NCBI GenBank assembly: GCA_964348725.1
Contig: CAYGDG010000003.1
Coordinates: 30,775 to 94,774 of the forward strand
Direction: 5' to 3'
From: an uncultured Candidatus Saccharibacteria bacterium
GTDB taxonomy: Bacteria; Patescibacteriota; Minisyncoccia; Phycocordibacterales; UBA9973
DNA: 64,000 nt
In this document: in pieces, positions 5,163 to 23,128 of the stretch
Layout of the letters: every line of letters starts with the position of its first letter
Position numbering within the stretch: position 1 is the first letter of the stretch
The notes under the pieces: model-generated
What the model saw: the letters and a program-made list of their open reading frames with translations, nothing else
Database searches by the model: none
What the model was told of the DNA's origin: nothing
Program-made: the position numbers and the translations under genes

Positions 5163-6117
5163 CGATCTGTTTTTCGCGATTTAAAAATAATCTTTTGAGA
5201 TTTTTGACCGTGAGGCGTATGCGGGCACTGCCTTCGCTGCCTGATTCCGGCTTTATTCCTATCTCGTTCTTCACATCGGAAGAAATGGGAGCTCCGTTCA
5301 GATACCAGGACATCTGAAGGTCCGGAGATTCCAGATCCTTCGGCGAAAAGAAATATGGTTCGGCACTGATTATGGCTCCTCCTTCGGGTATGAAAAATCC
5401 GTTCCCGATGGCGCGTGGCAGATGTTGTCCGGAAATAGGATCTTTGGCATAAAAAGTTATATGTGGTTCGGAGGGGCGGACCGTAGTCGTGCCCGTACCG
5501 ATGCCATTGCCTGCGAGGTCAGATACGGTGACATTGATCTCATTCTCAGTTTCCAAATAGGTATTCTTGAAAGTGTATGAGCTCTTGCCAAAACCGGAAA
5601 AAGTGACTGATGTCTTGCCGTCCTGCTCCCAGCGATAAGCGAAGTTCTTGGCGCTGCCGTTCGCCGGTATTGCCACTATCTTGTATGAGCCTTCGGTGGG
5701 AACAAGCGCTTTGCCTTTATAGAAAGGCGGCACATATGAGTCTACTCCTTGCCAGAGCAGATCTATGGCGGCCGGGCTGATGGCGATCGTCTTCTCGATG
5801 AGAGAGCCGTCCGCCGCTTCTATCCGTGCTTGGAGCAGTGTGCGTGACCCTGCGGCTGGGGCGGTAAAGGAAAAACTTTTCTGCCCGAATGCCTCTATCA
5901 TTACCCGTCCGTCGAGCAGCCACGTGATACGCGCGCGATCAAGATCGGAAGCGTATGTGGAGAGTGCTGCGGACACCGATTCGTTCGGCCGCGGATATCT
6001 CGGAGTGAGCGACAAAGAAACATCGCCGCTCTGTATCTGAGCCAAAGCGGAGAGTATAGGCAATGCGAAAAAAGCGATTGCGAGGACCACGACCGACATT
6101 TGTAACTTGGCGTACAT
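5149..6117 (-). CDS. Secreted/anchored protein, three beta-sandwich-like repeats (possible VirB8-position protein)
   Basis: 322 aa; N-terminal hydrophobic segment VVVLAIAFFALPILSALA; position downstream of VirB4 as in Gram-positive T4SS operons. Confidence 0.4.
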   Translation of the reverse strand: MYAKLQMSVVVLAIAFFALPILSALAQIQSGDVSLSLTPRYPRPNESVSAALSTYASDLDRARITWLLDGRVMIEAFGQKSFSFTAPAAGSRTLLQARIEAADGSLIEKTIAISPAAIDLLWQGVDSYVPPFYKGKALVPTEGSYKIVAIPANGSAKNFAYRWEQDGKTSVTFSGFGKSSYTFKNTYLETENEINVTVSDLAGNGIGTGTTTVRPSEPHITFYAKDPISGQHLPRAIGNGFFIPEGGAIISAEPYFFSPKDLESPDLQMSWYLNGAPISSDVKNEIGIKPESGSEGSARIRLTVKNLKRLFLNREKQIDVTF

Positions 6118-6138
6118 CGGCTATATTATATCACGCTC

Positions 6139-7980
6139 TTACCCTCGAGGCACAGTCTGGGCATCCGCTAATTCCTGCTTGGCCTTCTTGATGGAAAGGA
6201 TCTGCGAGGGGTCAGAGGTGATTATCTGATCTTCAGTGTATGAGGAAATGACTTTGATGGCGACGTGTTTCAGGCCGGCAAAGAATATGCCCTCTCCCAC
6301 GCCGGATTCCAGCAGGAGGTATTTCTCTTCATCGGTCAGATTAAATGTCTTTTGCAGGATGTCGATAGTAGATGGAGACTGCTTGAGGAGTATCTGGATG
6401 CTGGAGTTTGTAACGATCGGCACGCCGTACGGACTCTTCATGAAGTCAGCCGCGTCCTGAGTGATGGTGGCCAGGCCGAGGAAGTATTTGCGTCCGCGCT
6501 TGGCGATGGAGTACAAGAATGACGCAGTATCTTCTGATTTCATCATCCACCACGCTTCGTCCACCACAAGTAATCTTTTCTTCAGATTTTTTCTGACGGC
6601 ATTCCAGATGTAATGCGTGACGATGTACATGGCGATCGGCTTCAATTCATCTTCCATGTCGCGCACGGAGAAGACGACGAATTTCTTGTTGATATCGACG
6701 TTCGAGGGTTTGTTCAAGAATGTAGACCACGAGCCGCGCGTATATTTCACAAGACGCTGCACGACGGAGTCCGAACCTTCCATGCCGGAGAGCACCATCT
6801 CGAAGTCGGAAAGGAGTGGCGGTTCGATATTGGAAAAGTCAGATTCGGGCGTGATGTCTTTTATCGCATACGTTTCTGAAATGGCGCGGTCCACCATGGA
6901 GTCCTCTTCCGGCGTGAGCCCGCCGAGCATGAGACGGAACAGACCCACGAGGTTGATGATGTTCGAGCGGAGCACATCCGCTGCTGTTTCGTCTTCACGC
7001 GGGATCGGCAGGTCAAACGGATTAATGTGGTGTTCGGATGAGAGCGAAATATTGAAATAGCGTCCGCCGACGGCTTCAGCCAGGTATTCGTATTCTCGTT
7101 CCGGGTCGATGACGATGACGTCAGTGTCGAACATGAGCGAGCGTAGGATCTCGAGCTTCGTGGCATAGGATTTTCCGGAGCCGGATTTAGCGAAGGTGAC
7201 AGAGTTGTAGTTCTCCAGAGAGAAGCGGTCAAAAATAACAAGCGAAGAATTGTGCCGATTCACCCCATAGAGGATTCCTTTGTCGGACGTAAGGTCGAAA
7301 GAAACAAATGGAAAGATCGAAGAGAGTGGAGCAGAATTTAATTTCTGATGCACCGCAAGGACGTCGCTGCCGATCGGGATGACGCTCTTGAAACCTTCGT
7401 CCTGCTGGAATAGGGCCGGCTTTATGTATATGAGCTTTGATTCGAGCATGGATTTTATCTCATTCTCTATCTTGAAGAGCTCGAGCTCATTGTCGGCATA
7501 TACGGTGATGTACAGGCCCACATCGAACATTTTTTCCTGCGCTTGCATGAGGCTGTCGCGCAGGTTTTCGAGATCCTGATATGCCGTATCGAGCATCGGA
7601 TCGCGCACCATGCCCTTCCCTTCGCGTACGGCTATCTGGCTCTGCACCTCGGCTACTTTTTTCTGGAACTGGCGCAAGGCAAGCGAAGTGTCTATCGGGT
7701 GTATGAAGATCGAAACATCGAATATCTTATCGAGATTTATGATGGGCGAGAACCAATTGTCTGTCAAAAACCTCGGATACGAAATGATGAAGAATGTACG
7801 GGCTATCTTATCGCCGAGGTTCAAGGACTTTGGTTCGATCTTCAGAGCTGAAGGAGCGATGACATCCTGGAGCTCGAGCGTGGCGGATTCGTAGATTTCT
7901 TCCGGAAGCACGGCCAAGACGGACGCTCGCGCGTCGCTCTCTTTCGGTCTTCTTCCTAAAATTTTATCTAAAAGTGACAT
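6139..7980 (-). CDS. virB4: VirB4/TrbE/PrgJ-like T4SS ATPase, C-terminal ATPase part
   Basis: 613 aa; Walker A FAKSGSGKSYAT, Walker B RLLVVDEAWWMM (DEAW typical of VirB4), ATITQ motif. Confidence 0.8.
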   Translation of the reverse strand: MSLLDKILGRRPKESDARASVLAVLPEEIYESATLELQDVIAPSALKIEPKSLNLGDKIARTFFIISYPRFLTDNWFSPIINLDKIFDVSIFIHPIDTSLALRQFQKKVAEVQSQIAVREGKGMVRDPMLDTAYQDLENLRDSLMQAQEKMFDVGLYITVYADNELELFKIENEIKSMLESKLIYIKPALFQQDEGFKSVIPIGSDVLAVHQKLNSAPLSSIFPFVSFDLTSDKGILYGVNRHNSSLVIFDRFSLENYNSVTFAKSGSGKSYATKLEILRSLMFDTDVIVIDPEREYEYLAEAVGGRYFNISLSSEHHINPFDLPIPREDETAADVLRSNIINLVGLFRLMLGGLTPEEDSMVDRAISETYAIKDITPESDFSNIEPPLLSDFEMVLSGMEGSDSVVQRLVKYTRGSWSTFLNKPSNVDINKKFVVFSVRDMEDELKPIAMYIVTHYIWNAVRKNLKKRLLVVDEAWWMMKSEDTASFLYSIAKRGRKYFLGLATITQDAADFMKSPYGVPIVTNSSIQILLKQSPSTIDILQKTFNLTDEEKYLLLESGVGEGIFFAGLKHVAIKVISSYTEDQIITSDPSQILSIKKAKQELADAQTVPRG

Positions 7981-7986
7981 ATATTA

Positions 7987-8631
7987 TTACGCGTTCGTTA
8001 GGTCTATTTTACCTTCTATTTCTCCCGGATTGAAGACCTTGTAGAAAACTTCCACGATCTCTTCTGTGCCGAGCTCGACGGACTTGATGCCGGCGCTGGC
8101 CAGTCCCTGAGAGATGACCGCTACTCGCTGCTCGAGCTGCGAACGCTTCTCTTCGAAATCCGCGGCCGCGGCCGCTTTGACTTCTTCGCGGTTCTTGCGG
8201 GAAAATATTCCTTTCAGCATGCCGGTGTCGGCGGAAAATTCTTTCGGCGTATACGGCACGACCACGAAGAATGTCTTGGTCATGATATTTACCGTCTCGG
8301 TAAAATTCTTGATGAATTCCATATACTCGCGCGTCTGTACTTTCAGGAGTGGTTCATTCTGCACCTTCATCCTGTTCTCGAGAAGCAGCAAGTATGGCCG
8401 GATGTCGAGCTTCCTCGACTGCACGACTATCTGCACGGAGAAATCGAGCGTGTTCAGGAAGTTCTGGAACTGCATGATGGTGGCCTTCTGTTCATCTTCA
8501 GACTTGAGCGAAAGGTTCACTGAATTCGCGAGGACGACAGAGCGCAGCCCGCCGTCTTTCAAAACGACCACGCCGTCGCGGACTTCTTTGATAGGTACGA
8601 AATCTTGAGTTGCTCTCGCTTGTATGGCCAT
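7987..8631 (-). CDS. VirB4-like N-terminal domain protein (split from ATPase part by in-frame TAA TAA)
   Basis: 214 aa; DFVPIKEVRDGVVVLKDGGLRSVVL... resembles N-terminal domain of PrgJ/TcpF-type VirB4; same reading frame as 6139..7980, separated by TAA TAA TAT. Confidence 0.6.
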   Translation of the reverse strand: MAIQARATQDFVPIKEVRDGVVVLKDGGLRSVVLANSVNLSLKSEDEQKATIMQFQNFLNTLDFSVQIVVQSRKLDIRPYLLLLENRMKVQNEPLLKVQTREYMEFIKNFTETVNIMTKTFFVVVPYTPKEFSADTGMLKGIFSRKNREEVKAAAAADFEEKRSQLEQRVAVISQGLASAGIKSVELGTEEIVEVFYKVFNPGEIEGKIDLTNA

Positions 8632-8635
8632 AGTA

Positions 8636-9061
8636 TTATTCTACCTCATTTTGCGAATCTTTTTTCGTGTCCAGCACGTCCAAGCTCCAAGCCAGATCAC
8701 GCAATCGGCTCGCGCCCAGCTTTGGCGCGGGTATGGCACTTGCAAGAGAGGCCGCTTCTTTGGCTTTCTCACCTTTTTCTTTCCGTCTTCTCTTCCAGAT
8801 GTAGAGCTTGTCCGTGGCGGCGTAGCGGATGCTGGCCTCGAGCATATTTATGAATGGCTTATTGTTCGGACGGTAAAAAGTGAGCGCGAGCGAAAAGCCG
8901 GCAATAATGAGCATAGGAATCAATCCCCAGAAAAAGCCGAGCAGTTTATACAGGATGAAGCAAAGCCCTCCGCCGCCGGCGAGATAGACGAATTGGCGGA
9001 AAGTGAACGGGCCGAAGATCTTATCTTCGATGTCGATGAATTGTGGCACTTTGAATTGCAT
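8636..9061 (-). CDS. PrgI/VirB3-like small 2-TM protein
   Basis: 141 aa; two TM helices (LAGGGGLCFILYKLLGFFWGLIPMLIIAGFSLALTFY) then basic tail; sits immediately upstream of VirB4 as prgI-prgJ. Confidence 0.5.
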   Translation of the reverse strand: MQFKVPQFIDIEDKIFGPFTFRQFVYLAGGGGLCFILYKLLGFFWGLIPMLIIAGFSLALTFYRPNNKPFINMLEASIRYAATDKLYIWKRRRKEKGEKAKEAASLASAIPAPKLGASRLRDLAWSLDVLDTKKDSQNEVE

Positions 9062-9064
9062 ATT

Positions 9065-9835
9065 TTATTGCGGTATTTCTCGATACGGGTCTATTTGTGG
9101 TGCCGGGACGGGAGCTACGGCAGGTGCCTGCGGGCTGACAGAAACCGGCGTCTTGGAAATATTGCTCAAGGAATACTCTGTCTTTACCGTCGGCAGTTGG
9201 AAAGAGCCGGAGAGCTTCGAAATCGGTATGGAAGAGACCGAAGAAAGAATTTTTTCATTTTGTTTTGGCGTGCTTATTGTCTCGGGATGTTCCACTTTTG
9301 TCAGCATGTCTTCACGTTTTTCCATCGGAGCCGCTGCAGATATTTGAGGGGGGAGAACGGGAGATGGGGTAATATTGATGCCGACGGATTTCAATACGTC
9401 TGTCTCAGCTGTTTTCAGATCGGGTCTTGGTATTGTCGCCGCCGCCGGGCGGACAGATGGAATCGGCTCTTCTCTCACCTGAATTTTCTTCTTTTCCGTG
9501 AGCTTCATCAGTTCTTGGCGGATCTTCTTGAAAACGAGCTCGTTCATTTCATTTACCAGCTCGTCAGCCTTGGCACGCGGAATTTTCATTCGAGCCGAAA
9601 GTTCCGCCGGAAAATTTTCCGGTGACAGCAAGCCGCACAGCAATAATTCAGTTTCCACGCCGAGGTCTTCGATCTGTTCGAAGCTGAAGCCCTTTTTCTC
9701 ACGCATCGAGAGGACGATGCCGCGCCAATCTACCGCTTGTATCGCGTCGCGTGTAGCCTCTGGTAAAGCGGCTTTCGCCTTATCTATTTTTATCTGTAGA
9801 AGGTCAAGTTCTGCCATCTTTCTATTATATAACAA
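9065..9835 (-). CDS. Hypothetical protein, paralog A (shared ~90-aa N-domain with next gene, Pro/Ser-rich C-terminus)
   Basis: 256 aa; N-domain LPEATRDAIQAVDWRGIVL...ELVNEMNELVFKKIRQEL aligns with N-domain of 9825..10319 product. Confidence 0.45.
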   Translation of the reverse strand: MLYNRKMAELDLLQIKIDKAKAALPEATRDAIQAVDWRGIVLSMREKKGFSFEQIEDLGVETELLLCGLLSPENFPAELSARMKIPRAKADELVNEMNELVFKKIRQELMKLTEKKKIQVREEPIPSVRPAAATIPRPDLKTAETDVLKSVGINITPSPVLPPQISAAAPMEKREDMLTKVEHPETISTPKQNEKILSSVSSIPISKLSGSFQLPTVKTEYSLSNISKTPVSVSPQAPAVAPVPAPQIDPYREIPQ

Positions 9836-10319
9836 ATTTACTTTTTATGTCTTCTATTTTTGAAGGCGGCACGATGGCTCGTATGGTGTCCGTGAAATCT
9901 TTCGAGACCACGTGTTTTTTCATGAGTACGCCATAGTCTCCGCCGGAGAGGATGAAATCGAGCGATTCGCGCCATGTCCACTCCTTGGCGACTGAATTAT
10001 TTTTTATCGTCTCTCGAATTTTATTCGCGATAGGGACGAATACTTGCGCAAGAAGTTCCTGTGCCACTATCTCCGCTTGGTTTCTCGGGATCCCCACTTC
10101 GTCTTCTATATTCATGGCAATATCCTGCGGATATGCGAGGCCGGTCATTACCAGCACCGTTTCTATTGCCAAGTTATCAATATCTTGTTCCAGTAGACCG
10201 TGAGAATTTCCGACGGCAGTTATTTGTGCGAGCCAGTCAAAAGAATGTACCGCGTCCAAAGACTCCTTTGGTAAGGTCTTGAGCTGTTCGTTGATTTTAT
10301 TTTTTAATTCTTCAGTCAT
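9825..10319 (-). CDS. Hypothetical protein, paralog B
   Basis: 164 aa; LPKESLDAVHSFDWLAQITAV...EIVAQELLAQVFVPIANKIRETI homologous to paralog A; 11-nt overlap with it. Confidence 0.45.
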   Translation of the reverse strand: MTEELKNKINEQLKTLPKESLDAVHSFDWLAQITAVGNSHGLLEQDIDNLAIETVLVMTGLAYPQDIAMNIEDEVGIPRNQAEIVAQELLAQVFVPIANKIRETIKNNSVAKEWTWRESLDFILSGGDYGVLMKKHVVSKDFTDTIRAIVPPSKIEDIKSKFVI

Positions 10320-10324
10320 ATTTT

Positions 10325-12709
10325 TTAGTGATCAGGCGCATGTGCTCCTGCGGGTGCCGGAGCGTGGGCTTCGGCCGGTGCGGCGTGCCCATGATCCCCG
10401 TGGTCATCATCTCCCCCGTGATCTCCATGACCATCCTTCGGCGGCTTCATACCCATCCTGATGTTGTGTGACGCGTTGCGGTCTGAGCTTGCGCTGCCGC
10501 CAGTCATGACACTGATAGTTTGGTGAAGTCCACTGCCCACTCTGTCTGCCTCTTTATCTCTTCTATTGTAGTTCTTGAGCTCGATCGCATGTTCGGCGTG
10601 GTGGACAGACTCTTCCATGTCTTTCAGTGTGTTATCTCCTGACTTATATTCTTTAGCTGAGTAATTTTTGTCGACAGTAATGATATTTCCATCTATATCC
10701 TGATATTCATCTTTGAACGCCTGACCAGTCTTCAGTGCATCTTTCTGTTTCTTGAATACTTTGAGCTGGTCTCCGTATACCGCCAATGCGTCTCTCTTCT
10801 TAGCTTTATCCTCGTCAGTCAGATTCGGCATCAGGTTTGCATCCTTCAGGTTCTGTCGAGCTGCCTCGAGCTGCTTGTCGATTTTCGCCACTTCCGTATT
10901 AGTAGTCATCTGCAAGGCACGTAGATCGGTCTGCAGCTTGTTCAATTCCTGCTTCTCTTTTTCATTATCGCCGACTTCCAAATCCTTTGCTCTCTTCAGG
11001 CGCTTTGCTTCCTGGCGTTCTTTCATGCCGGCAAAGCCTCCTTGCGCCGGCTTGCCTACGCCTTTTACTAGGCCGGTGCCGCGGACATCAAATGAAGCAG
11101 CCCCGAGCGCTCCGCCTGCACCCTGTAATCCTCGTATTGCCCAACCATAGTATTTATTGCTGGACAGATCTTTCAGCTTGCCGCTGTCCGCGGCCATCTG
11201 GCCGAGTCTTCCGATGGTGGAGCGCCCCGCGAGAGCATATGCGCCGAGCGCGCCGCCGACGGCGAGTCCTGCCACGCCGCTGCCGATTTTTGACATTGCC
11301 GCGCCGATCTCACCAGACATTTTCTGGGCTATTTCTTTTGCCTTGGTAAGAAGGATAAAGATGATGGCGAATGGGATGATAGTCTTCATGAATTTATCCA
11401 TGTAATCAGTCGAATTGCCGATGTCGTATGTGATGAGGCTGAAGAAATCTCCGAACAGGATGATGACATACAGGAAGAAGATGAAGACAGGCGCGAGGAA
11501 TGCGTTCTTGAGTAGATTGCTCAGCCACTCTTCCCAGCCGAAACCCGGAATGTGCACGTGAGGCAAAGTTTTGGAAGCGAAAGCGATTGGCGCGAATATC
11601 ATGGAAAGCCACAGGGCGACCACTCGGCCGACAAAGAGCATGGCGACCGAGAAGAATATATATGCCATGAATGCCATGATGGCGGAAGACAGCAAAGTGA
11701 CGAAAATGAACAGCCCGATATTGCCGGCATAGTTATCCTGGGTGATGACGTTCTGAGGGTTGAAAGGTTTGGTGAGTCCGAGGGAGATGGATTTTTCACC
11801 CGCCGAGTTAGCCGGGAGCGGATTTCCATTGCTGTCGACGGCTTTGATGTTGTTGTAAAAAACTTTCGCCAATATGTTCGAGCCGTCTATCAGTACCTGG
11901 GTGAAGAACAGGCTGAAGTTTATGAGCAGCGCCACGATGATGATGGAGCTGATGGCTTTCTTTGCCCCGTGCCCAAGGTTCAGAATGGTCTGTATCGCTA
12001 TATATAGAAGAGATACGATAAAGAATATGTTGGCGATGTCGCGCACTGCTCCCCATGCCTTGCGGATGAATTCGCTCGAATATGAACTGCTGTTCGTGGA
12101 ATAATAGACAAAGAAGTCGAGTATTTTGGCGGCCAGTCTGGCGAATGCGGCCAAAGGTTCCCAGAATATGGTGTAAACTATGGCAGCCAAACAGCCCTTT
12201 ACTCCTTCAATACTGAGCTTACACTCAAAGCTGTAACCGTCCGACGGAATATTCGATGGCATGCTGGTGCCTTCTGCGGCAGCTTGGAATCCTGTATCCG
12301 TCTGTTGCGACCCTGATCCGTCGCCGTTAAAATTTACTGCATTGGATATCGTATTCGAGGGATTAGTGCTCGCGAGGATTCTGTATTTTTTGCTCGCTTG
12401 AAAATTGTATTCTACGAGTAAGCTAACTGTCTGTTCAGTGCCGGCATCGCTCACCTGCGATGTAAAATTGGTATGCTTTACGGAATTGACGAGCCCGGCT
12501 TCATCATATTGGAGAAGATTCAGATCAAACGCGTCTCCCGCTTTTGGACCCAAAATTTTTATTTTGAAAGTTCCGGAATTCGGCGTGATGTCAGCAGGTT
12601 GTATCGGCTGTATTTCCAGAGCGGTGACCGCGTGTGCTGTCCCGATCGGCGCTATGAAAATGCCGAGCGCGATCACCGATATCAAAATGTATGAAAAAAG
12701 CCTTTTCAT
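10325..12709 (-). CDS. VirB6/TrbL-like polytopic membrane protein with N-terminal secreted domain, C-terminal coiled coil and His/Asp-rich tail
   Basis: 794 aa; signal peptide, ~7 TM helices, Gly-rich GSGVAGLAVGGALGAYALAGRSTIGRLG segment typical of TrbL/VirB6, tail HGDHGGDDDHGDHGHAAPAEAHAPAPAGAHAPDH. Confidence 0.5.
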   Translation of the reverse strand: MKRLFSYILISVIALGIFIAPIGTAHAVTALEIQPIQPADITPNSGTFKIKILGPKAGDAFDLNLLQYDEAGLVNSVKHTNFTSQVSDAGTEQTVSLLVEYNFQASKKYRILASTNPSNTISNAVNFNGDGSGSQQTDTGFQAAAEGTSMPSNIPSDGYSFECKLSIEGVKGCLAAIVYTIFWEPLAAFARLAAKILDFFVYYSTNSSSYSSEFIRKAWGAVRDIANIFFIVSLLYIAIQTILNLGHGAKKAISSIIIVALLINFSLFFTQVLIDGSNILAKVFYNNIKAVDSNGNPLPANSAGEKSISLGLTKPFNPQNVITQDNYAGNIGLFIFVTLLSSAIMAFMAYIFFSVAMLFVGRVVALWLSMIFAPIAFASKTLPHVHIPGFGWEEWLSNLLKNAFLAPVFIFFLYVIILFGDFFSLITYDIGNSTDYMDKFMKTIIPFAIIFILLTKAKEIAQKMSGEIGAAMSKIGSGVAGLAVGGALGAYALAGRSTIGRLGQMAADSGKLKDLSSNKYYGWAIRGLQGAGGALGAASFDVRGTGLVKGVGKPAQGGFAGMKERQEAKRLKRAKDLEVGDNEKEKQELNKLQTDLRALQMTTNTEVAKIDKQLEAARQNLKDANLMPNLTDEDKAKKRDALAVYGDQLKVFKKQKDALKTGQAFKDEYQDIDGNIITVDKNYSAKEYKSGDNTLKDMEESVHHAEHAIELKNYNRRDKEADRVGSGLHQTISVMTGGSASSDRNASHNIRMGMKPPKDGHGDHGGDDDHGDHGHAAPAEAHAPAPAGAHAPDH

Positions 12710-12739
12710 TTATTATGTTGTAATTTTAGCACAAAAAAA

Positions 12740-14149
12740 CTATCTTTTGGTGAAATAATACTCGTAACCGTATGCGTTGCGTGTGGTGGAAGTCATCGTC
12801 TGAATGCTTATGATCCTGCTGTAATAATACTCATATACAGTAAGGCGGCCATTCAAGAATGCCAATTGATATGCCGCCACATCCGGCTCGGAGACGCGTA
12901 TTTCTCTGCCCGCGGTATTTATATAGCCGAAGCTGCGCGCATAAAAGTGCGCAAGTGTCCAAGCAAAAGTCTGCAGGTCTTGCCGCCCGTCCCAACCATA
13001 CGCGCGCGCCAAGGCTTCGTTCCCAGCTATTTGTCTCTGAAATACAGTCTCGATTCCTTCGTGGTAGCGGACTACTGCATCTATCGGCGGAATAACATTT
13101 TGTCCCAAGACGAACGGGCCGTTGGGATTCAAATTTCCATTACTTCCGTTATTCCCATTGTTTCCATTGTTCTGATTATTCCCATTTCCTCCCGACGTAG
13201 TATTTCCGCCGCCGTTATTGTTCACTCCCCCGCCTCCGCCATCATTTACTCCGCCGCCATCATTATTTACCGGAGTATCTCCACCCCCACCGATACCTCC
13301 GCCGACATATGTGCCTCCGCCGCCTGTGCCGTTGCAATTTTCATCGTCATCATCACCGCATGGAGCCTGGTACGGCTGTCCGCCGGGCGTTCCTCCGGGA
13401 TTCGTATTTCCCGGTGAAGCGGTAGTGAAGGACAGAACACCTCCGTAATACGTAGTGCCTCCGCTTGCCGCCGCCGCGCGGAATTCATATTGCGTGCCGG
13501 AAGTGAGACTATTGATGAGCGATACCATGTCTCCCGCGCCCGAGCTATGGCTTACGATTGAAGTTTTTTTCCAAGGCTCGCTGATATCGATTAGTAGCCC
13601 CCCAGCAGTCTCCGTCACTGGATTTATTTTTCTGTATTCGAACCACGTCGTCGAGACAGAAGTGGAATTGTAAGAACCGTTCACATACGAAGAGTCAGCG
13701 TCCACCACCAGGGCATCTTCGGTGATGACGGAAGTAGCGAAACAAGAGGCGCATGGAGTGGTGACGAATTCTTTCACATTGCCATAACGTATCTCGGTCC
13801 TACTGGAAGCGATGGCGCAGTAATAATATTTGGTGTTCGGCTCGAGCCCGGTGATTTTTTTAGAGAAGGAGGTGGTGCCGCCAGATCCGATATTCGTCTC
13901 TTTGGTATATTTCATGTCCGAACCGAAAACGTCATTACAGAACACGGGTGGGATATCGAGGGTCGCATAACGGAAATATCCGGAGCTCGGAAATCCTTCC
14001 GGATTAGCGGACCCGGAGAGAATGACCGAATTTTCCGTAATGGATGCAGCATTTCCGGTCAGGACGGAATTTATCGCCAGCGCCGAAAAGGGCATCCAGA
14101 GCAGGGCTGACATCGCTATTATATTTTTTATATTTTTTTGCATCTTCAA
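12740..14149 (-). CDS. Secreted protein: two FN3-like repeats, Gly/Asn-rich low-complexity linker, C-terminal GWDG-motif domain
   Basis: 469 aa; signal peptide; linker GGGGTYVGGGIGGGGDTPVNNDGGGVNDGGGGGVNNNGGGNTTSGGNGNNQNNGNNGNNGSNGN; C-terminal ALARAYGWDGRQDLQTFA. Confidence 0.5.
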   Translation of the reverse strand: MKMQKNIKNIIAMSALLWMPFSALAINSVLTGNAASITENSVILSGSANPEGFPSSGYFRYATLDIPPVFCNDVFGSDMKYTKETNIGSGGTTSFSKKITGLEPNTKYYYCAIASSRTEIRYGNVKEFVTTPCASCFATSVITEDALVVDADSSYVNGSYNSTSVSTTWFEYRKINPVTETAGGLLIDISEPWKKTSIVSHSSGAGDMVSLINSLTSGTQYEFRAAAASGGTTYYGGVLSFTTASPGNTNPGGTPGGQPYQAPCGDDDDENCNGTGGGGTYVGGGIGGGGDTPVNNDGGGVNDGGGGGVNNNGGGNTTSGGNGNNQNNGNNGNNGSNGNLNPNGPFVLGQNVIPPIDAVVRYHEGIETVFQRQIAGNEALARAYGWDGRQDLQTFAWTLAHFYARSFGYINTAGREIRVSEPDVAAYQLAFLNGRLTVYEYYYSRIISIQTMTSTTRNAYGYEYYFTKR

Positions 14150-16711
14150 TTAATATATTTGCAGCGTCCTTTCGAACACGCCGATCGTCTGCGAAGTCTT
14201 GTCTTGCTGCAGGTTAAAGAGATCGCTGACTCGCACATAAGTCGGGCCGCGGGGATTGCCTAAGCTGCCGCATTCTGCCGTATTTGCCAGGCCGAACTGC
14301 TCGTAGAAAGAGCAGAAGCTGGTGATGCTTGAAAGGTTTGCCAATGTCGGGATGGTGAAGACGGTAAATGAACTGGCTGAGAGGAATCCGGGGCCGCCTC
14401 CATTCGCTATGGCCGGCATGTTGTTCGTAATGCCCGCATTAAGCGGATCAGGAATTGCCGCTCCTGCAGCCAAGGTGTTGTAATCATACAATATGTCAAA
14501 AGGATAAGCTGGACGCTTGGTGTCGAGTATCTGCCATGGAGTATTACCAAGGTCATTTTCGCAGCCGGCCGCACCTTTCAGTAGGTCCTTGTAAACGTAA
14601 TTGGTTTTGTCGATTATTTCTCTCCACATGATATCTGCCGCGGCAATGTCATTGCCGGAGACCATGTCTATAGAGAGGCGGCCGAAAGCGCTGGTCCATG
14701 GCTGGAGCGCATTTTCATATGCGTCCTGTGAGAGTGAGCCGGAAGCGAGCTGGCTGTTGAGCGCATCAATTTTGTTCTTGATATTGATAAGTCGCTGCAC
14801 AATGCTTTTTTTGACTGCAATATTTGTCTTGTTGTCTTCGATTATCTTTTTATATCCCTCGGCTCGTAGGAATTCCGCTTCCGCTTCGCTGGCCACTCCC
14901 GGCTGGATGTCGCGGATGAATGTACTATTTACTGCAGTCACATATCGGTCAAATATCTTATCCAATTTTTCAACAACGCTTGAATAAGGAAGCAAGTTGT
15001 CGTCTCGTACTACAGCCAGGCCGGTAATGAGGCCGACGTATGCGGCGTAGAGTTTTTTAGAGTCATTCTCTCCGTCACCTATGCCGAGGGCGACACCTAT
15101 TTGATTTATCGGTCCACCAAATGCACCGGCCAGCTGGTGTACAGTATCCGGTGGAATAGTATCCACGTCCGGTATCTTGCTTTCGGCGGTTTCCAGAGCG
15201 ATCTGCGCTTCTTCTTCCCAATCCGGATGCGGACCAGGGATACAGTAGTCGAGCTGGTAGACTGTTTTAATGAGGTTCGGCAATGCCGCATTCTGCTGTT
15301 CAAGCTTGTCTATATATGTACGCTGCGTGTCTATCACCGCTTGGGAAAAGTCCGTACGGATATTGAAATCCGGATTATCCCGGAGCCAGGAACTTGCATT
15401 CAGCGCGGAGTCGGCAAAATCTTTTTCAGTTTGCCATTTGTCCGAGTCGCTTATGCCGAGCGAATCAAGCGAGAGTCTGTTGTCATTTTCAGTCAATGCG
15501 GCAAGGCCTTCGTTGGTCAGCTGAGCGGTGAATTTTGCGAGTAAGGCGTCAAGCACTGCGGCGATGGCGTCATTCAGATCTTGTGCTTCGAGCAAGGCGT
15601 CCTTTGGATAACCCACGGCATCTGTGGCCAAGCTGGCCACGATGGAGCCTGGTGTTACACTCTCCCATCTTTTACAGAGGCGAGGCGAGCCGGTCGGATA
15701 CATGTTCGAGCTACCGGCGAGAGCCGCATCGTGTTCTTCTTTGGTGACTCCTATCGGATCCGCGCAACGAGAATCTGGCAGCCATCCGCCCGCTGATTGC
15801 AGGCCTTTGTCGATCCATTGTGCGGTAGACATCTCTGTGCCGGCCAACCTGCCACTTAGTTCATTTGAAGCCAAGAGATTGAAACCAAGGGGATTGTTTG
15901 CTGGTATGATGGTCATCGCATTCCACGCTCCCCAGCCCCCTTGCGAAAAATCTTCACTGAAAGCAGCAGCGGTGTATTGCGGCGTAGTGTCGCGGATCAG
16001 CTTGTCTAAAGAAAACTGCGCGTTCTGGGCGAAGTGATTGTTGAAAGCATTGGCTTGTGCATAGAGGAATGCGCGGCCGAAAGGAAACTTATTCGCATCA
16101 TTTATCTCGAGCCCGAAGCCGAGGATCTCTTCTTTTGCGATATCACGGAAATATTTAGTGGATTGGACAAAGAATGACTGACCATTATTTCCGTTCCTGA
16201 TCCATTCTATGGTCGCCAAAGTTATTTTTTGCAGCAGCAATTTTATGACCATGCGGCCGATGGCTTCGGTGCAGGTAATTTTCTTCTTGATGGACTCGGT
16301 ATTTGTGTCGATATTGTCTATAGTTTGTCCTTGTTTTATTACTGCCGTATAGGTGGCCTCATCATGCACTCCGATATCGTCTACTGTGGCGGAACTCTCG
16401 GCAGATTTGCCGGAAAAACTGCCGTCTTCTAATCGAGGACCGATCTCTTTTTTGGCTTTCCTGAACAAGCCCTTTATCCCGCTGCCTATGGCCTTCTGGC
16501 ATTCCGGAAGCTTGGCGATAGTGGGCAAAAGACCTTTTACGTAGCCGTTGATATTTCCGCCGGAACTGGATCCGGTGGCACCGGAAGTGCCGGTCGAATT
16601 GCTACCGAAGACGCCGAATGTCTGAGCACTTACCAAGACAGGCGAAAGCAATATGCCCGCAAGCGTGAATATGACGACTATATTTTTAAAAATTATATTT
16701 GCTTTGCTCAT
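14150..16711 (-). CDS. Large secreted protein of unknown function
   Basis: 853 aa; N-terminal signal peptide IVVIFTLAGILLSPVLVSAQ; stop/start adjacent to neighbours. Confidence 0.5.
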   Translation of the reverse strand: MSKANIIFKNIVVIFTLAGILLSPVLVSAQTFGVFGSNSTGTSGATGSSSGGNINGYVKGLLPTIAKLPECQKAIGSGIKGLFRKAKKEIGPRLEDGSFSGKSAESSATVDDIGVHDEATYTAVIKQGQTIDNIDTNTESIKKKITCTEAIGRMVIKLLLQKITLATIEWIRNGNNGQSFFVQSTKYFRDIAKEEILGFGLEINDANKFPFGRAFLYAQANAFNNHFAQNAQFSLDKLIRDTTPQYTAAAFSEDFSQGGWGAWNAMTIIPANNPLGFNLLASNELSGRLAGTEMSTAQWIDKGLQSAGGWLPDSRCADPIGVTKEEHDAALAGSSNMYPTGSPRLCKRWESVTPGSIVASLATDAVGYPKDALLEAQDLNDAIAAVLDALLAKFTAQLTNEGLAALTENDNRLSLDSLGISDSDKWQTEKDFADSALNASSWLRDNPDFNIRTDFSQAVIDTQRTYIDKLEQQNAALPNLIKTVYQLDYCIPGPHPDWEEEAQIALETAESKIPDVDTIPPDTVHQLAGAFGGPINQIGVALGIGDGENDSKKLYAAYVGLITGLAVVRDDNLLPYSSVVEKLDKIFDRYVTAVNSTFIRDIQPGVASEAEAEFLRAEGYKKIIEDNKTNIAVKKSIVQRLINIKNKIDALNSQLASGSLSQDAYENALQPWTSAFGRLSIDMVSGNDIAAADIMWREIIDKTNYVYKDLLKGAAGCENDLGNTPWQILDTKRPAYPFDILYDYNTLAAGAAIPDPLNAGITNNMPAIANGGGPGFLSASSFTVFTIPTLANLSSITSFCSFYEQFGLANTAECGSLGNPRGPTYVRVSDLFNLQQDKTSQTIGVFERTLQIY

Positions 16712-16723
16712 TTTGCTTTATTT

Positions 16724-17632
16724 TTACTCGGTTATTATACCATTATTTTCCAATATTGCCTGAAGCTCGCGTGCCGCTTTGATGAGGTCATCACTGTATT
16801 TTTGGTATTGCGAGAGTCCGGAGAGGCCGATGATCGGGTCCGTCACCATTTTTTCCATGTTCCGCACCGCGACGCCGGTATTATTCGCGTCATTCATGAT
16901 CTTCAGATGATGCGATACGAGGCTGGATGGCACAGACATCTCGGACATCTTGGAAGCAAATTCTTGGTATGCGTCCGCGATCCCGCTCAAGCGGCTTTCA
17001 GAATTTGTTTCGCCTGTAGAAGAATAAGTAGTAATGTCACCGCTCACCGCTTCGAGCTCGTCGCCGATACCGGCCTCGGCATACTTTTCAAAAAGACCTT
17101 GCAATGTATCATAGTATTTAGCTTGTGCTTGTACCCCGGTCTCTTCCGAGAGTTTGACGTTATTTGAAGTGTAGCGATCAAGGAGCGAAGGATCGGCTAT
17201 TTTCTCGCCGATCGAACCATAGAGATTGTTTATGGTCTTTTCATCGAACTGCCCATTCTGCTTCAAAGCTACAAAGGAAGTGAAAAATTCCTGAGCGAAT
17301 TTTTCCGTCTCTGTACCTTCCATACCAGCCGTGTCTCCGGCCGGCAGAGCTTCTCGCCTTTTCCTGATATATGAGCTGTCTGGTTCGCCGTCGAATGTGA
17401 CGGCCTTGTTCACGTCTGTTCCCCACAGCCCTTCTTCCCAATCCATCACGCCGTCGCCGTCAGTATCTTTCTGCCAAAGATCATTGAGCGTCACTTTTTC
17501 CGCCCGCAATTTCTTTTCCGATATGAATCGGCTGGCGGTGGAGAAACGGGAAATAAGGAAAACGCCGGCAATGACAGCGATGCCTATTCCCATCCATATC
17601 GTGAATTTTTTGCTTGGCAGATATTTATTCAT
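16724..17632 (-). CDS. N-terminally anchored membrane protein (first gene of operon), contains DxDxDG Ca-binding-like motif
   Basis: 302 aa; TM WMGIGIAVIAGVFLISRF; DTDGDGVMDWEEGLWGTD. Confidence 0.5.
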   Translation of the reverse strand: MNKYLPSKKFTIWMGIGIAVIAGVFLISRFSTASRFISEKKLRAEKVTLNDLWQKDTDGDGVMDWEEGLWGTDVNKAVTFDGEPDSSYIRKRREALPAGDTAGMEGTETEKFAQEFFTSFVALKQNGQFDEKTINNLYGSIGEKIADPSLLDRYTSNNVKLSEETGVQAQAKYYDTLQGLFEKYAEAGIGDELEAVSGDITTYSSTGETNSESRLSGIADAYQEFASKMSEMSVPSSLVSHHLKIMNDANNTGVAVRNMEKMVTDPIIGLSGLSQYQKYSDDLIKAARELQAILENNGIITE

Positions 17633-17682
17633 CAGTTGAAGACATTATATCATTAATCCATTTTTTGTGGTATTATTACTGT

Positions 17683-18063
17683 ATGAGTAAAATAACTAAA
17701 GAAATCAGGTTATTGGCCTGCTCTGCTCTGCTTTTGGGAGGTGTTTTCCTCTTCTCCTACTCTTCTGTTTTCGGTGCTGCGGGCGCGATTGATTTTGGCG
17801 GAAATATGATAACGAGCGTGGTGGAATGCACCTGCAGCACCGGTTCTCAGATCTCTGTTACCGGTTATGGACGCAAAAATTCAAAACATACCGGTACATA
17901 TTTATACACTCCAGGGACGATAGTCATCAAAGGAAAGGTGGAGCCCGGCAAAAAAATTATCGGCCAATACACCTCTGGAGGAGGCCAATGTTTGATAACA
18001 GGAACCCCATGTGAAAAATTGCCTATAACTAAAGGCACGTTTAAGATCATCAGCACTAATTAA
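17683..18063 (+). CDS. Small secreted Cys-containing protein, divergent from T4SS-like operon
   Basis: 126 aa from internal ATG of ORF 17614..18063; N-terminal hydrophobic segment LLACSALLLGGVFLFSYSSVFGAAGA; 6 Cys. Confidence 0.45.
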   Translation: MSKITKEIRLLACSALLLGGVFLFSYSSVFGAAGAIDFGGNMITSVVECTCSTGSQISVTGYGRKNSKHTGTYLYTPGTIVIKGKVEPGKKIIGQYTSGGGQCLITGTPCEKLPITKGTFKIISTN

Positions 18064-18883
18064 CAGTTTTTGTTATTTGTATCCAATCTGTAAGCGTGAG
18101 TTCTTCCGCACGGGTATTTATGGGTATATCAGTGGGTAATTTCGCTATATTTTTCAGGTTTCCAGCCAGTATCTTGCGCTTATGTGCAAAGCCGGCGCGG
18201 ACAATAGTCCAAAATTTTTCTTCATCTACTGCTTTTTGCCCAAAAAGCTTGCGGTTTAGGTCTGTAATAGCTATAACCGCCGAATCCACCTTCGGCGCCG
18301 GGGAAAAATACCGCGCCGGCACTTTCATCACCATCTTCGGATTACCATATGCTTTGACCGATATGGAAAGGATGCTTTCTTTACCATCGTTCGCGATAAT
18401 TCTCTGCGCCACTTCCCTCTGTACGAGCAATACCATGCGCTCTGGCTGATTTTTTTCCGTCAAAAACTTTTTCAATATCGCGCCTGTGATGTTGTACGGT
18501 ATGTTTGCTATTACTTTATACCTCACCCCCTGCCCCCTCTCCTTATCAAGGAGAGGGGAAATTTCAAACTCCAAAATATCTTCATTTTTTAAAATTAATT
18601 TTTTATTTTGTATTTCATTCGCAAATTTTTCCTGCAAGTATTCAAAAAGCTCTGAATCTTTTTCCACGGCGATGACTGTCGCCCCTGCGCCAAGCAATTT
18701 TTCCGTCAGCGCACCCTTACCGGGGCCGATTTCAAGCACAATGTCTTTTGCATTCACTTCACCCGCCGAAATAATCGCGGTCAGCGCCGCTTGCGATTTC
18801 AAGAAATTCTGCCCGAGTGATTTTTTTGCTCTGTGTCCAGGCCCGGCCTGGACAGTAGATTTGGTTTTATATTTTTTCATCAT
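18056..18883 (-). CDS. rsmA: 16S rRNA (adenine1518/1519-N6)-dimethyltransferase RsmA/KsgA, carrying two in-frame palindromic repeat insertions
   Basis: GHRAKKSLGQNFL, VLEIGPGKGALT (SAM site), ANIPYNIT motifs; REP-A at 18834..18854 and hairpin repeat at 18520..18558 lie inside the ORF. Confidence 0.85.
   Translation of the reverse strand: MMKKYKTKSTVQAGPGHRAKKSLGQNFLKSQAALTAIISAGEVNAKDIVLEIGPGKGALTEKLLGAGATVIAVEKDSELFEYLQEKFANEIQNKKLILKNEDILEFEISPLLDKERGQGVRYKVIANIPYNITGAILKKFLTEKNQPERMVLLVQREVAQRIIANDGKESILSISVKAYGNPKMVMKVPARYFSPAPKVDSAVIAITDLNRKLFGQKAVDEEKFWTIVRAGFAHKRKILAGNLKNIAKLPTDIPINTRAEELTLTDWIQITKTVN
18520..18558 (-). repeat. 37-39 bp hairpin repeat family C (RPE-like), copy 1, in-frame inside rsmA
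   Basis: rc = CCCCTCTCCTTGATAAGGAGAGGGGGCAGGGGGTGAGGT; encodes SPLLDKERGQGVRY within KsgA. Confidence 0.7.
18834..18854. repeat. REP-A palindrome copy 1 (TGTCCAGGCCCGGCCTGGACA)
   Basis: Perfect 19-21 bp palindrome; 13 bp downstream of RAYT1 stop, inside rsmA N-terminal codons. Confidence 0.8.
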
Positions 18884-19526
18884 ACGTAAGCCAATTTTCT
18901 ATTTCTGCTTTTACTTCATCCGTATTTTGAAAATAATCCGGAAATGGGCTCTTTTCCAGGATCTTTTTCTCCGAGCGTTCCAGATTCAAATAATCCACAT
19001 AGCTTGAAAAATTAAATTTTTTCAAGTATTCTTTCGCGCCGGAAATATTTTTTAAGCCGGCTTCCTTCCATCGCGGCTCTATTATTTTGAGTGGATTGAG
19101 ATGAATATAAGCGTATAAGTATTTTAAATAATTGTCGTTTTCGACATGCTGCGATTTTGTTTTTCCCTGAAAAAGAGATCCGCTCCGGTCATATTTTTTG
19201 TTGAAATATGTGGAATAACTTGTGAGTAATTTTAAAAGAAACTGGCTTGCATCTTTCTCATTTTTGATCCGTACAAGAATATGAAAATGATTCGGCATTA
19301 GGCAATACGCCCCGATATCTACCAAACTCTCCCCTCTTTCCACTGTCCAGGCCCGGCCTGGACTTGTCTCAGCGTCAGAATATTTCGGCGATTCTTTGCC
19401 GTTGCATAAATAAAGTAGCTTATGAAATCGCGCATAATCTTTTTCATCCTTGAAAATCGTCATTTTATTTGTCCCACGATTATACAGATGATAATACTCC
19501 CCTTGGGCAAAAGGTATTTTCCTCAT
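18867..19526 (-). CDS. REP-associated tyrosine transposase / IS200-like Y1 HUH transposase (RAYT1)
   Basis: 219 aa; GEYYHLYNRG, HUH motif CLMPNHFHILV, catalytic Tyr region LLTSYSTYFNKKYDRSGSLFQG; flanked by REP-A. Confidence 0.75.
   Translation of the reverse strand: MRKIPFAQGEYYHLYNRGTNKMTIFKDEKDYARFHKLLYLCNGKESPKYSDAETSPGRAWTVERGESLVDIGAYCLMPNHFHILVRIKNEKDASQFLLKLLTSYSTYFNKKYDRSGSLFQGKTKSQHVENDNYLKYLYAYIHLNPLKIIEPRWKEAGLKNISGAKEYLKKFNFSSYVDYLNLERSEKKILEKSPFPDYFQNTDEVKAEIENWLTYDEKI
19345..19363. repeat. REP-A palindrome copy 2, in-frame inside RAYT1
   Basis: GTCCAGGCCCGGCCTGGAC; encodes SPGRAWT within the transposase. Confidence 0.8.
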
Positions 19527-19539
19527 CCTCCTATTATAC

Positions 19540-19560
19540 TGTCCAGGCCCGGCCTGGACA
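19540..19560. repeat. REP-A palindrome copy 3
   Basis: TGTCCAGGCCCGGCCTGGACA, 14 bp upstream of RAYT1 start. Confidence 0.8.
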
Positions 19561-19648
19561 AGGGTCTGTGATACTTGACTTTTTATTCTCTTGGGTGTAT
19601 AATCTAGAAAATACTGAAATGAACTACACTCTTTAAAAACACAAAACT

Positions 19649-20299
19649 ATGAAAAAACTTATGATCGTCCTCGCACCTTTGGTGATGTTGCTTGCTTCTT
19701 GCGGTATGTCACAGGAAGAAAAATTGCGGTATTCGGCAAAATCCGGCAATGCCGCGGAGGCGCTCTTTGGCGAATCCGCGATAACGCTTCCCACTGCGCT
19801 CAATCTGAACACAATTTCACCGGTAGATTCTTTCACCGTCCCGGCTCTCAAAAAGAGCTTTGATCCGAAAGAATTGATCAATGAGTCCGGCGGCATCGCG
19901 AACTTCTATATTTTTAGCAGTTTTCAAAAAATTCTGGACGATTTCAAGCCCGTGATGCTCGATACATATCCTATGAACATAAAAATATGGGAGACGGTGA
20001 AGAGCACTACTGATCTTGAAATTTTTGCTCAAATCAGGACCGAGCCGATGAGCGAAACGGAATTTGTGAAACTCTTCGTATATCTTATTTCCAAGCAGCC
20101 AAATGGCGAGCCGGGGAAATTGCTTACGAGCGGATACGCGAATATTTTCCATGTCCGCACAAGCTCCGGAGCGTCGGTCGCTCTCTACGCGGGCTGGGGC
20201 TCCGTCAGCGAGCGCTGGTATGTGCACGCGCGCGGCCTCGATTCTTGGGACGGTGGCGAACGCGTCTTTTCCCGGGGCAATGAGCCCTTGGATTCTTAA
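19649..20299 (+). CDS. Lipoprotein of unknown function
   Basis: 216 aa; lipobox MLLASCG; C-terminal ALYAGWGSVSERWYVHARGLDSWDGGERVFSRG duplicated downstream. Confidence 0.6.
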   Translation: MKKLMIVLAPLVMLLASCGMSQEEKLRYSAKSGNAAEALFGESAITLPTALNLNTISPVDSFTVPALKKSFDPKELINESGGIANFYIFSSFQKILDDFKPVMLDTYPMNIKIWETVKSTTDLEIFAQIRTEPMSETEFVKLFVYLISKQPNGEPGKLLTSGYANIFHVRTSSGASVALYAGWGSVSERWYVHARGLDSWDGGERVFSRGNEPLDS

Positions 20300-20347
20300 A
20301 CTCTTGGATTTTGGTTTTTAAAACTTAGATCCTTAGAAACTTATCAA

Positions 20348-20380
20348 ATGCCCTTGCAATTTTTGCAAGGGCATTTTCTA
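20348..20380 (+). terminator. Rho-independent terminator of lipoprotein gene
   Basis: ATGCCCTTGCAA-TTT-TTGCAAGGGCAT 12-bp stem followed by TTTCT. Confidence 0.7.
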
Positions 20381-20453
20381 TGAAATTTTGTATAATACAG
20401 TACACCAGACCTCATGATCGGACGGTCAAGACTTTCCGGCGGGAACGGCAGAA

Positions 20454-20745
20454 TTGAATTTCGAGAGCTTGGCCGGGTATGCCTTGCCGGGGAGTGGGAT
20501 TCATATTCCGAAACAAAAAATATTTTGCCCGTGGCGGGCGCTGGAGGATTTTAGATCCCAGATAAAATACAGCACGATCCCTGATATAAGTTATGCTTGG
20601 GTCGGCAGTGGCGCAGGTGGCGCTTGCCACACAGCGACGGTCGCTCTCTACGCGAACTGGAACTCCGACAACGAGCACTGGAATGTGAACGCGAACGACC
20701 TCGATTCTTGGAACGGAGGCAAACGCGTCTTTTCCCGATGCAGAT
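20454..20745 (+). pseudogene. Truncated paralog/remnant of lipoprotein gene 3' end (no in-frame stop before running antisense into pcrA)
   Basis: ~125 bp direct repeat of 20160..20290 at 20620..20745 (~80% identity); encodes ATVALYANWNSDNEHWNVNANDLDSWNGGKRVFSRC; preceded by extended -10 TGTATAAT at ~20389..20396. Confidence 0.4.
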
Positions 20746-20784
20746 CATTTTTTCCCGCCAGCAAAAGCCGGCGGGATTTTTTTT

Positions 20785-20803
20785 GTCCAGGCCCGGCCTG
20801 GAC
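20785..20803. repeat. REP-A palindrome copy 4
   Basis: GTCCAGGCCCGGCCTGGAC immediately after CCCGCC...GGCGGG hairpin; overlaps pcrA stop codon by 1 nt. Confidence 0.8.
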
Positions 20804-22812: not shown

Positions 22813-22837
22813 GAGAACACTATAGCATAAAAATATT

Positions 22838-23128
22838 TTACTGAGCCGCCACTGCTTCTTTTTTAAGATTTTCCGTTTCTTCAGCTGCTATCTGTGAGAA
22901 AGCAGGCACTTTTTCCATGAAAAAATCGAGCACTGCTTCCGGTGATGCGTCGCTGTCCATCAGCTTGTCGTATTCGGACATTGTATTCTCGTCGAAGAGC
23001 GGAAGGATGCGCAGGAGCACTGCCTGGAAAATTATCTTTCCGAGACGGGCCAGCATTTCTTCCTGCTCGGCTTCTGGAAGATCGTTTATCTTGAATACTT
23101 CTACGATGTTTTGTTTTATTGGGTTCAT
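22838..23128 (-). CDS. Small acidic hypothetical protein
   Basis: 96 aa ORF, compact spacing with neighbours. Confidence 0.35.
   Translation of the reverse strand: MNPIKQNIVEVFKINDLPEAEQEEMLARLGKIIFQAVLLRILPLFDENTMSEYDKLMDSDASPEAVLDFFMEKVPAFSQIAAEETENLKKEAVAAQ

Follow-up and report, generated by a model that had tools for sequence, protein, structure and literature searches.

Patescibacteria depend on other cells, and a chromosomal system resembling a type IV secretion system (T4SS) is thought to be central to this lifestyle. Two described designs bear on what follows. The adhesins of Gram-positive conjugative T4SS combine a variable ectodomain with a conserved C-terminal LPXTG anchor, and XVIPCD is the VirD4-interacting C-terminal domain of the T4SS effectors of Xanthomonas (PDB 7mu9). 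Our subject is a short segment shared by two proteins encoded in and near a T4SS-like operon, in a stretch of 64,000 nucleotides (the window) from an uncultured Candidatus Saccharibacteria bacterium (contig CAYGDG010000003.1, positions 30,775 to 94,774 of the forward strand). These proteins are the products of open reading frame (ORF) A, at 12740..14149 on the (-) strand with 469 amino acids (aa), and of ORF B, at 23152..25434 on the (-) strand with 760 aa. We find that the segment belongs to a domain of about 115 residues, for which we coined the name X; L-numbers denote related loci and P-numbers related proteins.

The T4SS of Patescibacteria is described as MPF-FATA-like, with VirB4, PrgI/VirB3, TrsD/TraC-like and VirB6-like components and VirB2-like pilins (Quinonero-Coronel et al. 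2025, PMC12102498). The locus described here is of the same kind, since A lies inside such a cluster and VirB4-like, PrgI and pilin genes follow on the same strand within 10 kb. It differs in that the A and B families and X are not described among the components listed in the available part of that survey (PMC12102498). The same part reports that no adhesins, PrgB-type included, were detected (PMC12102498), and on that account the surface components of the Patescibacteria machine are a gap. X is a conserved domain, absent from the databases, that marks two surface-protein families genetically tied to the machine. A profile of X allows both families to be found and can aid the annotation of candidate phyla radiation (CPR) genomes. 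Judging from sequence, X may be regarded as a candidate anchoring module and the A family as a candidate adhesin.

Protein A can be compared most readily to PrgA, PrgB and PrgC of pCF10: like them it is encoded in a T4SS operon and begins with a signal peptide, after which come repeat or Ig-like modules, a flexible linker and a conserved element at the C-terminus. The likeness is one of architecture. A has no LPXTG and no sequence similarity to these proteins, and its C-terminal element is a folded domain of about 115 aa and not a sorting signal. The closest functional analogy would be the design of the Gram-positive T4SS adhesins, a conserved anchor with a variable ectodomain, without homology. 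LysM, SH3b/GW, SLH and choline-binding repeats, which anchor proteins non-covalently to the wall of monoderm bacteria, offer another parallel, as a conserved module tethering variable surface proteins is what we propose for X, but X has no match to them in Pfam, NCBIfam or fold searches and the 'GW' of GWDG is not conserved in the X family.

The resemblance between A and B

The preliminary description of this DNA proposed that A and B carry similar C-domains, and both peptides that it quoted were found inside the two ORFs. In a BLASTP comparison A363-396 aligns with B594-627 without gaps, with 14 of 34 residues identical (35.4 bits, E 5e-6 for the pair). In A this segment, at 12962..13063 on the (-) strand, covers the first two helices, the YGWDGRQD loop and the beginning of helix 3, as seen in the secondary structure of an AlphaFold2 (AF2) model. 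Outside a stretch of about 34-37 residues BLASTP gives no further alignment between A and B, so that the claimed similarity holds for this stretch and not for the C-domains as a whole, the rest of which does not align. The pattern given for it, G(N/D)..A....GWDG(R/K).DL..FA, was off by one position, as the Ala common to both stands five residues after G(N/D) and not four.

The resemblance is real and chance is an unlikely source of it. The Smith-Waterman score of A and B is 77, and of 1000 shuffles of A (42.6 +/- 5.7, maximum 73) none reaches it; with the C-domains only, the score is equalled by 0 of 2000 shuffles. When the 70 non-overlapping ORFs of the window are compared all against all by BLASTP, A-B is the third-best pair (E 1.2e-4) and lies about 9 bits above the level of 26.6 bits at which unrelated pairs peak. 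The motif G[WFY]DG occurs at two sites only in the six frames of the window, one in A and the other in B. At the DNA level the two segments are 47% identical, and the same codon is used at 4 of the 14 identical residues, which rules out a recent gene conversion or duplication between A and B. The preliminary description had named two outcomes that would speak against a shared module, namely a profile search without further members and a score within the range of shuffled sequences; the shuffles were exceeded, and more than 45 further carriers were found.

Homology through intermediate sequences

The similarity of A and B might nevertheless be read as a chance or convergent likeness of two short helical segments with no common ancestry. 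Only 34 residues align, the pairwise E-value would come near 1 over a whole genome, and a hidden Markov model (HMM) of the A family gives the B of the window 2.3 bits, with an hhalign probability of 5%. The loop has the form YGY..G in 45 A orthologues, and YGWDGRQD is found solely in the A of this genome, which accounts for the low score of B against the A-family profile; GWDGKE(N/D)LH.FA is the form of the loop in B-type proteins. The exact GWDG identity is thus a coincidence particular to this lineage that adds to true homology, and part of the A-B score is owed to luck.

What stands against a chance likeness comes from related genomes. In three genomes with an A-type locus (L042, L044 and L016) a complete X domain carrying 'LGWDGKENLHHFAQ' lies in the syntenic position of B. 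In two of these, L042 and L044, the ORF in this position, at the upstream edge of the locus, holds 'DAIIHKGEGIENAFIRQIEHNTEMAKSLGWDGKENLHHFAQHEAHALAIKEGYVDGNGNEIRVNVADKVGYEIKMENGHATVFE...YEY' and the B-type loop 'GWDGKENLHHFAQ', and it scores 79 and 73 bits, respectively, against the A-family HMM (HMM positions 23-135); the copy in L016 is more diverged (26.8 bits). The X domain of L042 can be aligned by BLASTP both with the X of A (78.2 bits, E 2e-24, 38% identity over 114 aa) and with the segment of B (37.4 bits, E 1e-8, 46% identity over 35 aa). Four B-type X domains match the A-family profile in hhalign with a probability of 99.2% and E 7e-20. An HMM built from four foreign B-type domains only, searched against 837 ORFs of the window, finds A (54.7 bits, E 6e-16) and B (16.2 bits, E 4.6e-4), with the next-best ORF at E 5.9, and so these two ORFs, and no others, are picked out by a profile to which neither had contributed. 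An HMM designated X1 also finds B, with 15.2 bits and E 0.003 over about 4600 ORFs.

A further link is provided by P0016, which is followed by DUF5663 as B is and has a full X together with a B-like remnant. The A-family HMM matches P0016 at residues 569-655 (22 bits, HMM positions 28-110) and weakly at 924-961, the latter being orthologous to the GWDG segment of B, and the X-like segment of B (X') matches the middle X copy of P0016 in BLASTP with 30.8 bits and E 1e-5. The matches through L042, L044 and P0016, together with the foreign B-type HMM, establish the homology of the module. We regard common ancestry of the module in A and B as very highly probable on this sequence evidence, and a chance likeness as effectively refuted. 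The proposal of a homologous module shared by two proteins was therefore upheld by the intermediates and the profile searches. A resemblance of 34 residues that was picked out by eye proved to be a true remote homology, of a kind that can be proven only by way of intermediate sequences from related genomes.

The X domain in the A family

In A the domain occupies residues 357-469 (12743..13081 on the (-) strand) and is a conserved C-terminal alpha/beta domain according to its homologues, the HMM and an AF2 model. A matches X over its full length and scores 209 bits against the A-family HMM. Motifs of the domain include EGIETVFxRQI, YG[YW]xxG, LQTFA, FGY, GxEIRVSxPD, LTVYEYY and YEYYF. For A and B types together the profile can be written as EGIExxFxRQI ... 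G[YW]xxG ... FA ... GY ... EIRV ... VxE ... YEY. Residues E364, E367, R372, Q373, E416, E440, Y409, Y427 and Y462 are invariant or nearly so across A and B types. The AF2 model of X from the family alignment has a predicted local distance difference test (pLDDT) score of 77.7 and a predicted template modelling (pTM) score of 0.74. It consists of three helices, at 38-48 (IETVFQRQIAG), 50-55 (EALARA) and 64-78 (LQTFAWTLAHFYARS), and then five strands in which many residues are aromatic.

With the C-terminal 129 residues of A as query, 13 homologues were found at E-values of 1e-23 to 7e-43, mostly truncated gene calls, and a scan of species-representative genomes found 44 A-type loci, almost every one of which is labelled as Patescibacteria, Nomurabacteria or Paceibacterota. 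Metagenome-assembled genomes (MAGs) of Nomurabacteria/Paceibacterota hold the closest relatives of A. No relatives of X were found by the scan in viral contigs. X has no match in Pfam or NCBIfam; the best match among PDB sequences, an exochitinase, is not significant (E 0.27), and a Foldseek search of the fold gave no match at E <= 0.001. X is thus a new, previously undescribed and taxonomically narrow domain family, though not a new kind of system.

In all 47 A-type ORFs X ends 0-2 residues before the stop. These ORFs range from 215 to 1024 aa, and their N-terminal repeat and linker parts differ. In the A of the window a predicted Sec signal peptide (MKMQKNIKNIIAMSALLWMPFSALA; 14075..14149 on the (-) strand, called from sequence only) is followed by a variable N-terminal region at residues ~26-245 (13415..14074, (-) strand) and a Gly/Asn-rich low-complexity linker at residues ~246-345 (13115..13414, (-) strand; seen in the translation). 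A hydropathy scan finds residues 7-31 to be hydrophobic, followed by A-L-A. The N-terminal region resembles fn3 (17.5 bits, cut-off 25) and Pur_ac_phosph_N (24.4 bits, cut-off 30) below the Pfam cut-offs, which is suggestive of Ig-like repeats, and the repeat motif GYFRY...CN..YG...YYYCAI is common to A and its orthologues in L002 and L003.

Runs of N, which are assembly gaps, fall in the low-complexity linkers of A orthologues (~3770..3870 in L002; ~9400..9500 and ~9880..9980 in L003). Because of these gaps gene callers report X alone as a short protein, as with P0005 and P0009, and the database entries of the family are systematically truncated.

Protein B and the B family

Protein B begins with a charged region without a signal peptide (residues 1-200, 24835..25434 on the (-) strand), presumed to be cytoplasmic, followed by a membrane region (24337..24831, (-) strand) in which a Kyte-Doolittle scan finds hydrophobic segments at 202-220, 258-280 and 344-366. 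Past these lie a domain that we call 'mid' (residues 425-545, 23800..24162 on the (-) strand) and X' (residues 593-629, 23548..23658 on the (-) strand), a degenerate helical front of X (YERTEDSIQKMIEGDSNAAKLMGWDGKEDLHAFAER) found by HMMs and BLASTP. The remaining 131 residues of the C-terminal region (630-760, 23155..23547 on the (-) strand) are common to P0016 962-1090. Only B593-629 aligns with X (HMM positions ~13-52 / 34-70, 14-16 bits), and the beta half of X was not detected in B by the HMMs. B therefore carries a partial, degenerate copy of about 37 aa and not a complete domain. The last ~70 residues of B show a weak, collinear likeness in BLAST to a further module, Y, the HMM of which stays below threshold on B.

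The family as a whole is built in a common order: a charged N-terminus, three hydrophobic segments, a full X or 'mid', a variable linker and usually a C-terminal Y module that ends in ...EMGKLDKVKL. Full X domains are found in L016, L042, L044 and P0016, where they form the first ectodomain past the last membrane segment; 'mid' is found in B, in P0015 and in the 17 metagenome loci L050-L066. P0016 has a second, weaker unit of X' and Y' after the first, and B has 'mid', X' and a Y-like tail. A similar helical remnant, 'AEALKGLGYTGDPNDRQAVEEFF', is retained in L056. The ectodomains of the family (L050-L066, L004 and L049) are mosaics of at least four modules, namely X, 'mid', Y (…EVTGL.P…ET…EMGKLDKVKL) and a fourth (MQF.YD.NG…YEYKF.H…MQK.II..YG.VLNPEKL). 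In L018 (1..1239) the halves of 'mid' stand in swapped order, which suggests a duplication or permutation.

That 'mid' might be a diverged X was considered. The two have the same position and some residue spacing in common, and helix 3 and the following Gly turn can be aligned, but hhalign gives E 0.025-0.6 over 22-25 columns, and the relation was not established.

Database searches returned few relatives of B. When B582-760 was searched exhaustively by phmmer against 1.84 billion representatives, P0016 (1090 aa, E 5.6e-12) was the one true relative, with B595-760 aligned to P0016 924-1090; P0017 and P0018 were discarded as tandem-repeat artefacts. A word-index protein search with full-length B, dominated by low-complexity words, had B itself and P0015 among the matches listed. 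P0015 (962 aa) has only the 'mid' domain in common with B, at 55% identity. The same kind of search with the C-terminal 179 residues of B gave no match, not to B's own entry P0014 either, so that negatives from this index do not amount to absence.

Location of the domain

The preliminary description offered two readings of the shared module, one of which was a C-terminal signal for secretion or targeting. We searched A and B for the properties of a protein handed to the T4SS from the cytoplasm and found others. A has a predicted Sec-type signal peptide at its N-terminus; B has none, and its three hydrophobic segments are consistent with a membrane protein. B is predicted to have its N terminus inside and residues 367-760 outside, and with the signal peptide of A this places both copies of X, by prediction, outside the cytoplasmic membrane. 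X is terminal in the 47 A-type ORFs and internal in the B types, with more than 200 residues after it in L042, L044, L016 and P0016. No coupling-protein (VirD4) domain was identified among the operon genes scanned.

The idea behind such a signal is that X would direct translocation by the T4SS-like apparatus, as XVIPCD does or as the signals of Gram-positive T4SS substrates do. X and XVIPCD do have something in common, both being C-terminal domains of about 100-120 residues that recur in otherwise unrelated T4SS-linked proteins, but no fold similarity between the two was found. The Sec signal peptide of A, and the external and internal copy in B, make a T4SS translocation signal very unlikely, and this reading is not supported.

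Proposed role of X

We lean, by a modest degree, toward the view that A and B have in common the helical front of an undescribed extracytoplasmic alpha/beta domain that serves as a docking or binding module. A conserved terminal domain, variable parts that would face outward and a linked carrier anchored in the membrane lead to this reading, and of the two in the preliminary description the shared binding domain is the best remaining, our best inference of a predicted role. X would be the conserved 'foot' of otherwise variable surface proteins, holding them to a common partner in the envelope beside the T4SS-like apparatus while the variable parts project outward. The partner could be a cell-wall polymer, a polytopic membrane protein or another X domain, and X would have no part in substrate recognition for secretion. 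Taken for itself, the function in docking or anchoring is a tentative assignment from sequence, possible but short of probable.

Several observations count against docking. We infer the function outright, and no structural analogue was found. The conserved acidic and aromatic residues listed above, with R372 and Q373, could equally mark a catalytic or sugar-binding pocket. The case for B itself depends on about 37 residues and the intermediate sequences, with the poor score of B against the A-family HMM already noted; the topology of B was read from a plain hydropathy scan; and the AF2 model made for B416-760 from a two-sequence alignment is unusable (pLDDT 38.7), so that the helix pattern over B598-629 in it, which resembles X, carries no weight. 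Most B-family proteins have 'mid' instead of X (17 of 17 metagenome loci). A general pairing of A and B through X then fails unless 'mid' is a diverged X, which is unsupported.

The main rival to docking is an enzymatic or sugar-binding domain. X could act on the cell's own wall or that of a host, either as a small enzyme or by binding carbohydrate, and so stand in functionally for wall remodelling of the VirB1 type, with the copy in B as an inactive remnant. The Glu, Arg, Gln and Tyr residues conserved across A and B types and the aromatic-rich strands are in keeping with this, as are the wall enzymes encoded nearby (the pilin-VanY fusion, a YkuD-like protein upstream of B, and LysM-M23 beside P0016), and VirB1 homologues are scarce in Patescibacteria according to the available part of the survey (PMC12102498). 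Against it, X has no similarity in sequence or fold to any hydrolase, lysozyme or carbohydrate-binding module, the lone weak PDB match is the exochitinase mentioned above, and the domain has merely about 115 residues. Searches of X for LysM, SH3b/GW, SLH, SLT/VirB1, NlpC/P60 and M23 gave no profile match at the curated thresholds and no clear fold match. We consider an enzyme or sugar-binding domain doubtful.

A more specific form of the docking idea seems to us improbable, namely that X is the docking domain of a missing 'adhesin layer' of the Paceibacteria T4SS-like machine, with the secreted, fast-evolving A proteins held at the surface by X. The X of A would then bind the X, or X-derived, ectodomain of B, or a polytopic protein in the VirB6 position. 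If true, the two proteins would form a two-part, exchangeable device for host contact, and the linkage between B and the T4SS operon across Paceibacteria would be explained.

Gene neighbourhood

The genes around A are co-directional and encode, in order, a 302-aa anchored protein, an 853-aa secreted protein, A, a 794-aa polytopic protein, two small proteins, a PrgI/VirB3-like protein, a 214-aa protein, a VirB4-like ATPase (P-loop_TraG), a 322-aa protein and a pilin-VanY fusion. The genes downstream of A span 2569..12709 on the (-) strand and were recognised by the Pfam families PrgI, P-loop_TraG, T4SS_pilin and VanY. The polytopic protein, called by its hydrophobic segments, is at 10325..12709, and the Pfam assignments place the PrgI/VirB3-like protein at 8636..9061, the VirB4-like ATPase at 6139..7980 and the pilin-VanY fusion at 3918..5162, all on the (-) strand. 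The order downstream of A is repeated in L002 and L003. An A-type gene always stands directly upstream of a polytopic protein of about 800 aa, with PrgI, a TraC-like gene and VirB4 further downstream. The pilin domain is fused to differing wall enzymes, VanY (a D-Ala-D-Ala carboxypeptidase) here and YkuD (an L,D-transpeptidase) in L002 at 12148..13098.

About 9 kb separate A from B on its upstream side, and DUF5663, UvrD and KsgA come after B. Members of the B family, which are mosaic proteins anchored in the membrane, always have DUF5663-UvrD as neighbours. The genes between the two (14150..23128 on the (-) strand), which encode the 853-aa secreted protein, the 302-aa anchored protein, KsgA, UvrD and the DUF5663 protein, have homologues in 25-45 related loci. 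P0015 and P0016 have DUF5663 after them, as B does. The preliminary description assigned B to a second unknown cluster, which did not survive the comparison: B-like, DUF5663, UvrD, KsgA and, further on, A-like and T4SS genes form one neighbourhood, the flanking genes of which are seen again in about 40 or more related loci.

The DUF5663 protein (22838..23128 on the (-) strand) is small, has one hydrophobic segment and lies between the B-family gene and UvrD; it follows the B-family gene in 25 related loci. This tight pairing suggests that it may be a functional partner of B. Just upstream of B is a gene for a 450-aa protein (25503..26855, (-) strand) with a YkuD domain (L,D-transpeptidase) at 264-393 and a hydrophobic segment at 205-223, which, unlike the genes downstream of B, is nearly without counterpart in related loci, apart from one weak match (L054).

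Two paralogous IS200-like Y1 transposases (Pfam Y1_Tnp, 39% mutual identity) are encoded at 18867..19526 on the (-) strand and 46743..47405 on the (+) strand. The former separates UvrD from KsgA and is accompanied there by a lipoprotein-like ORF and a truncated look-alike of the C-terminus of that ORF (19649..20299 and 20454..20963 on the (+) strand), the two having the common end ...LDSW[DN]GG[EK]RVFSR. Since the junction of UvrD and KsgA is uninterrupted in L003, L004 and L042, the element looks like an insertion into a conserved neighbourhood. Elsewhere in the window are a gene for a Fic/DOC-domain protein (30471..31421, (-) strand) and genes for two paralogous TrmB-type helix-turn-helix proteins (45854..46630 on the (+) strand and 51865..52632 on the (-) strand), which match each other with E 1e-6.

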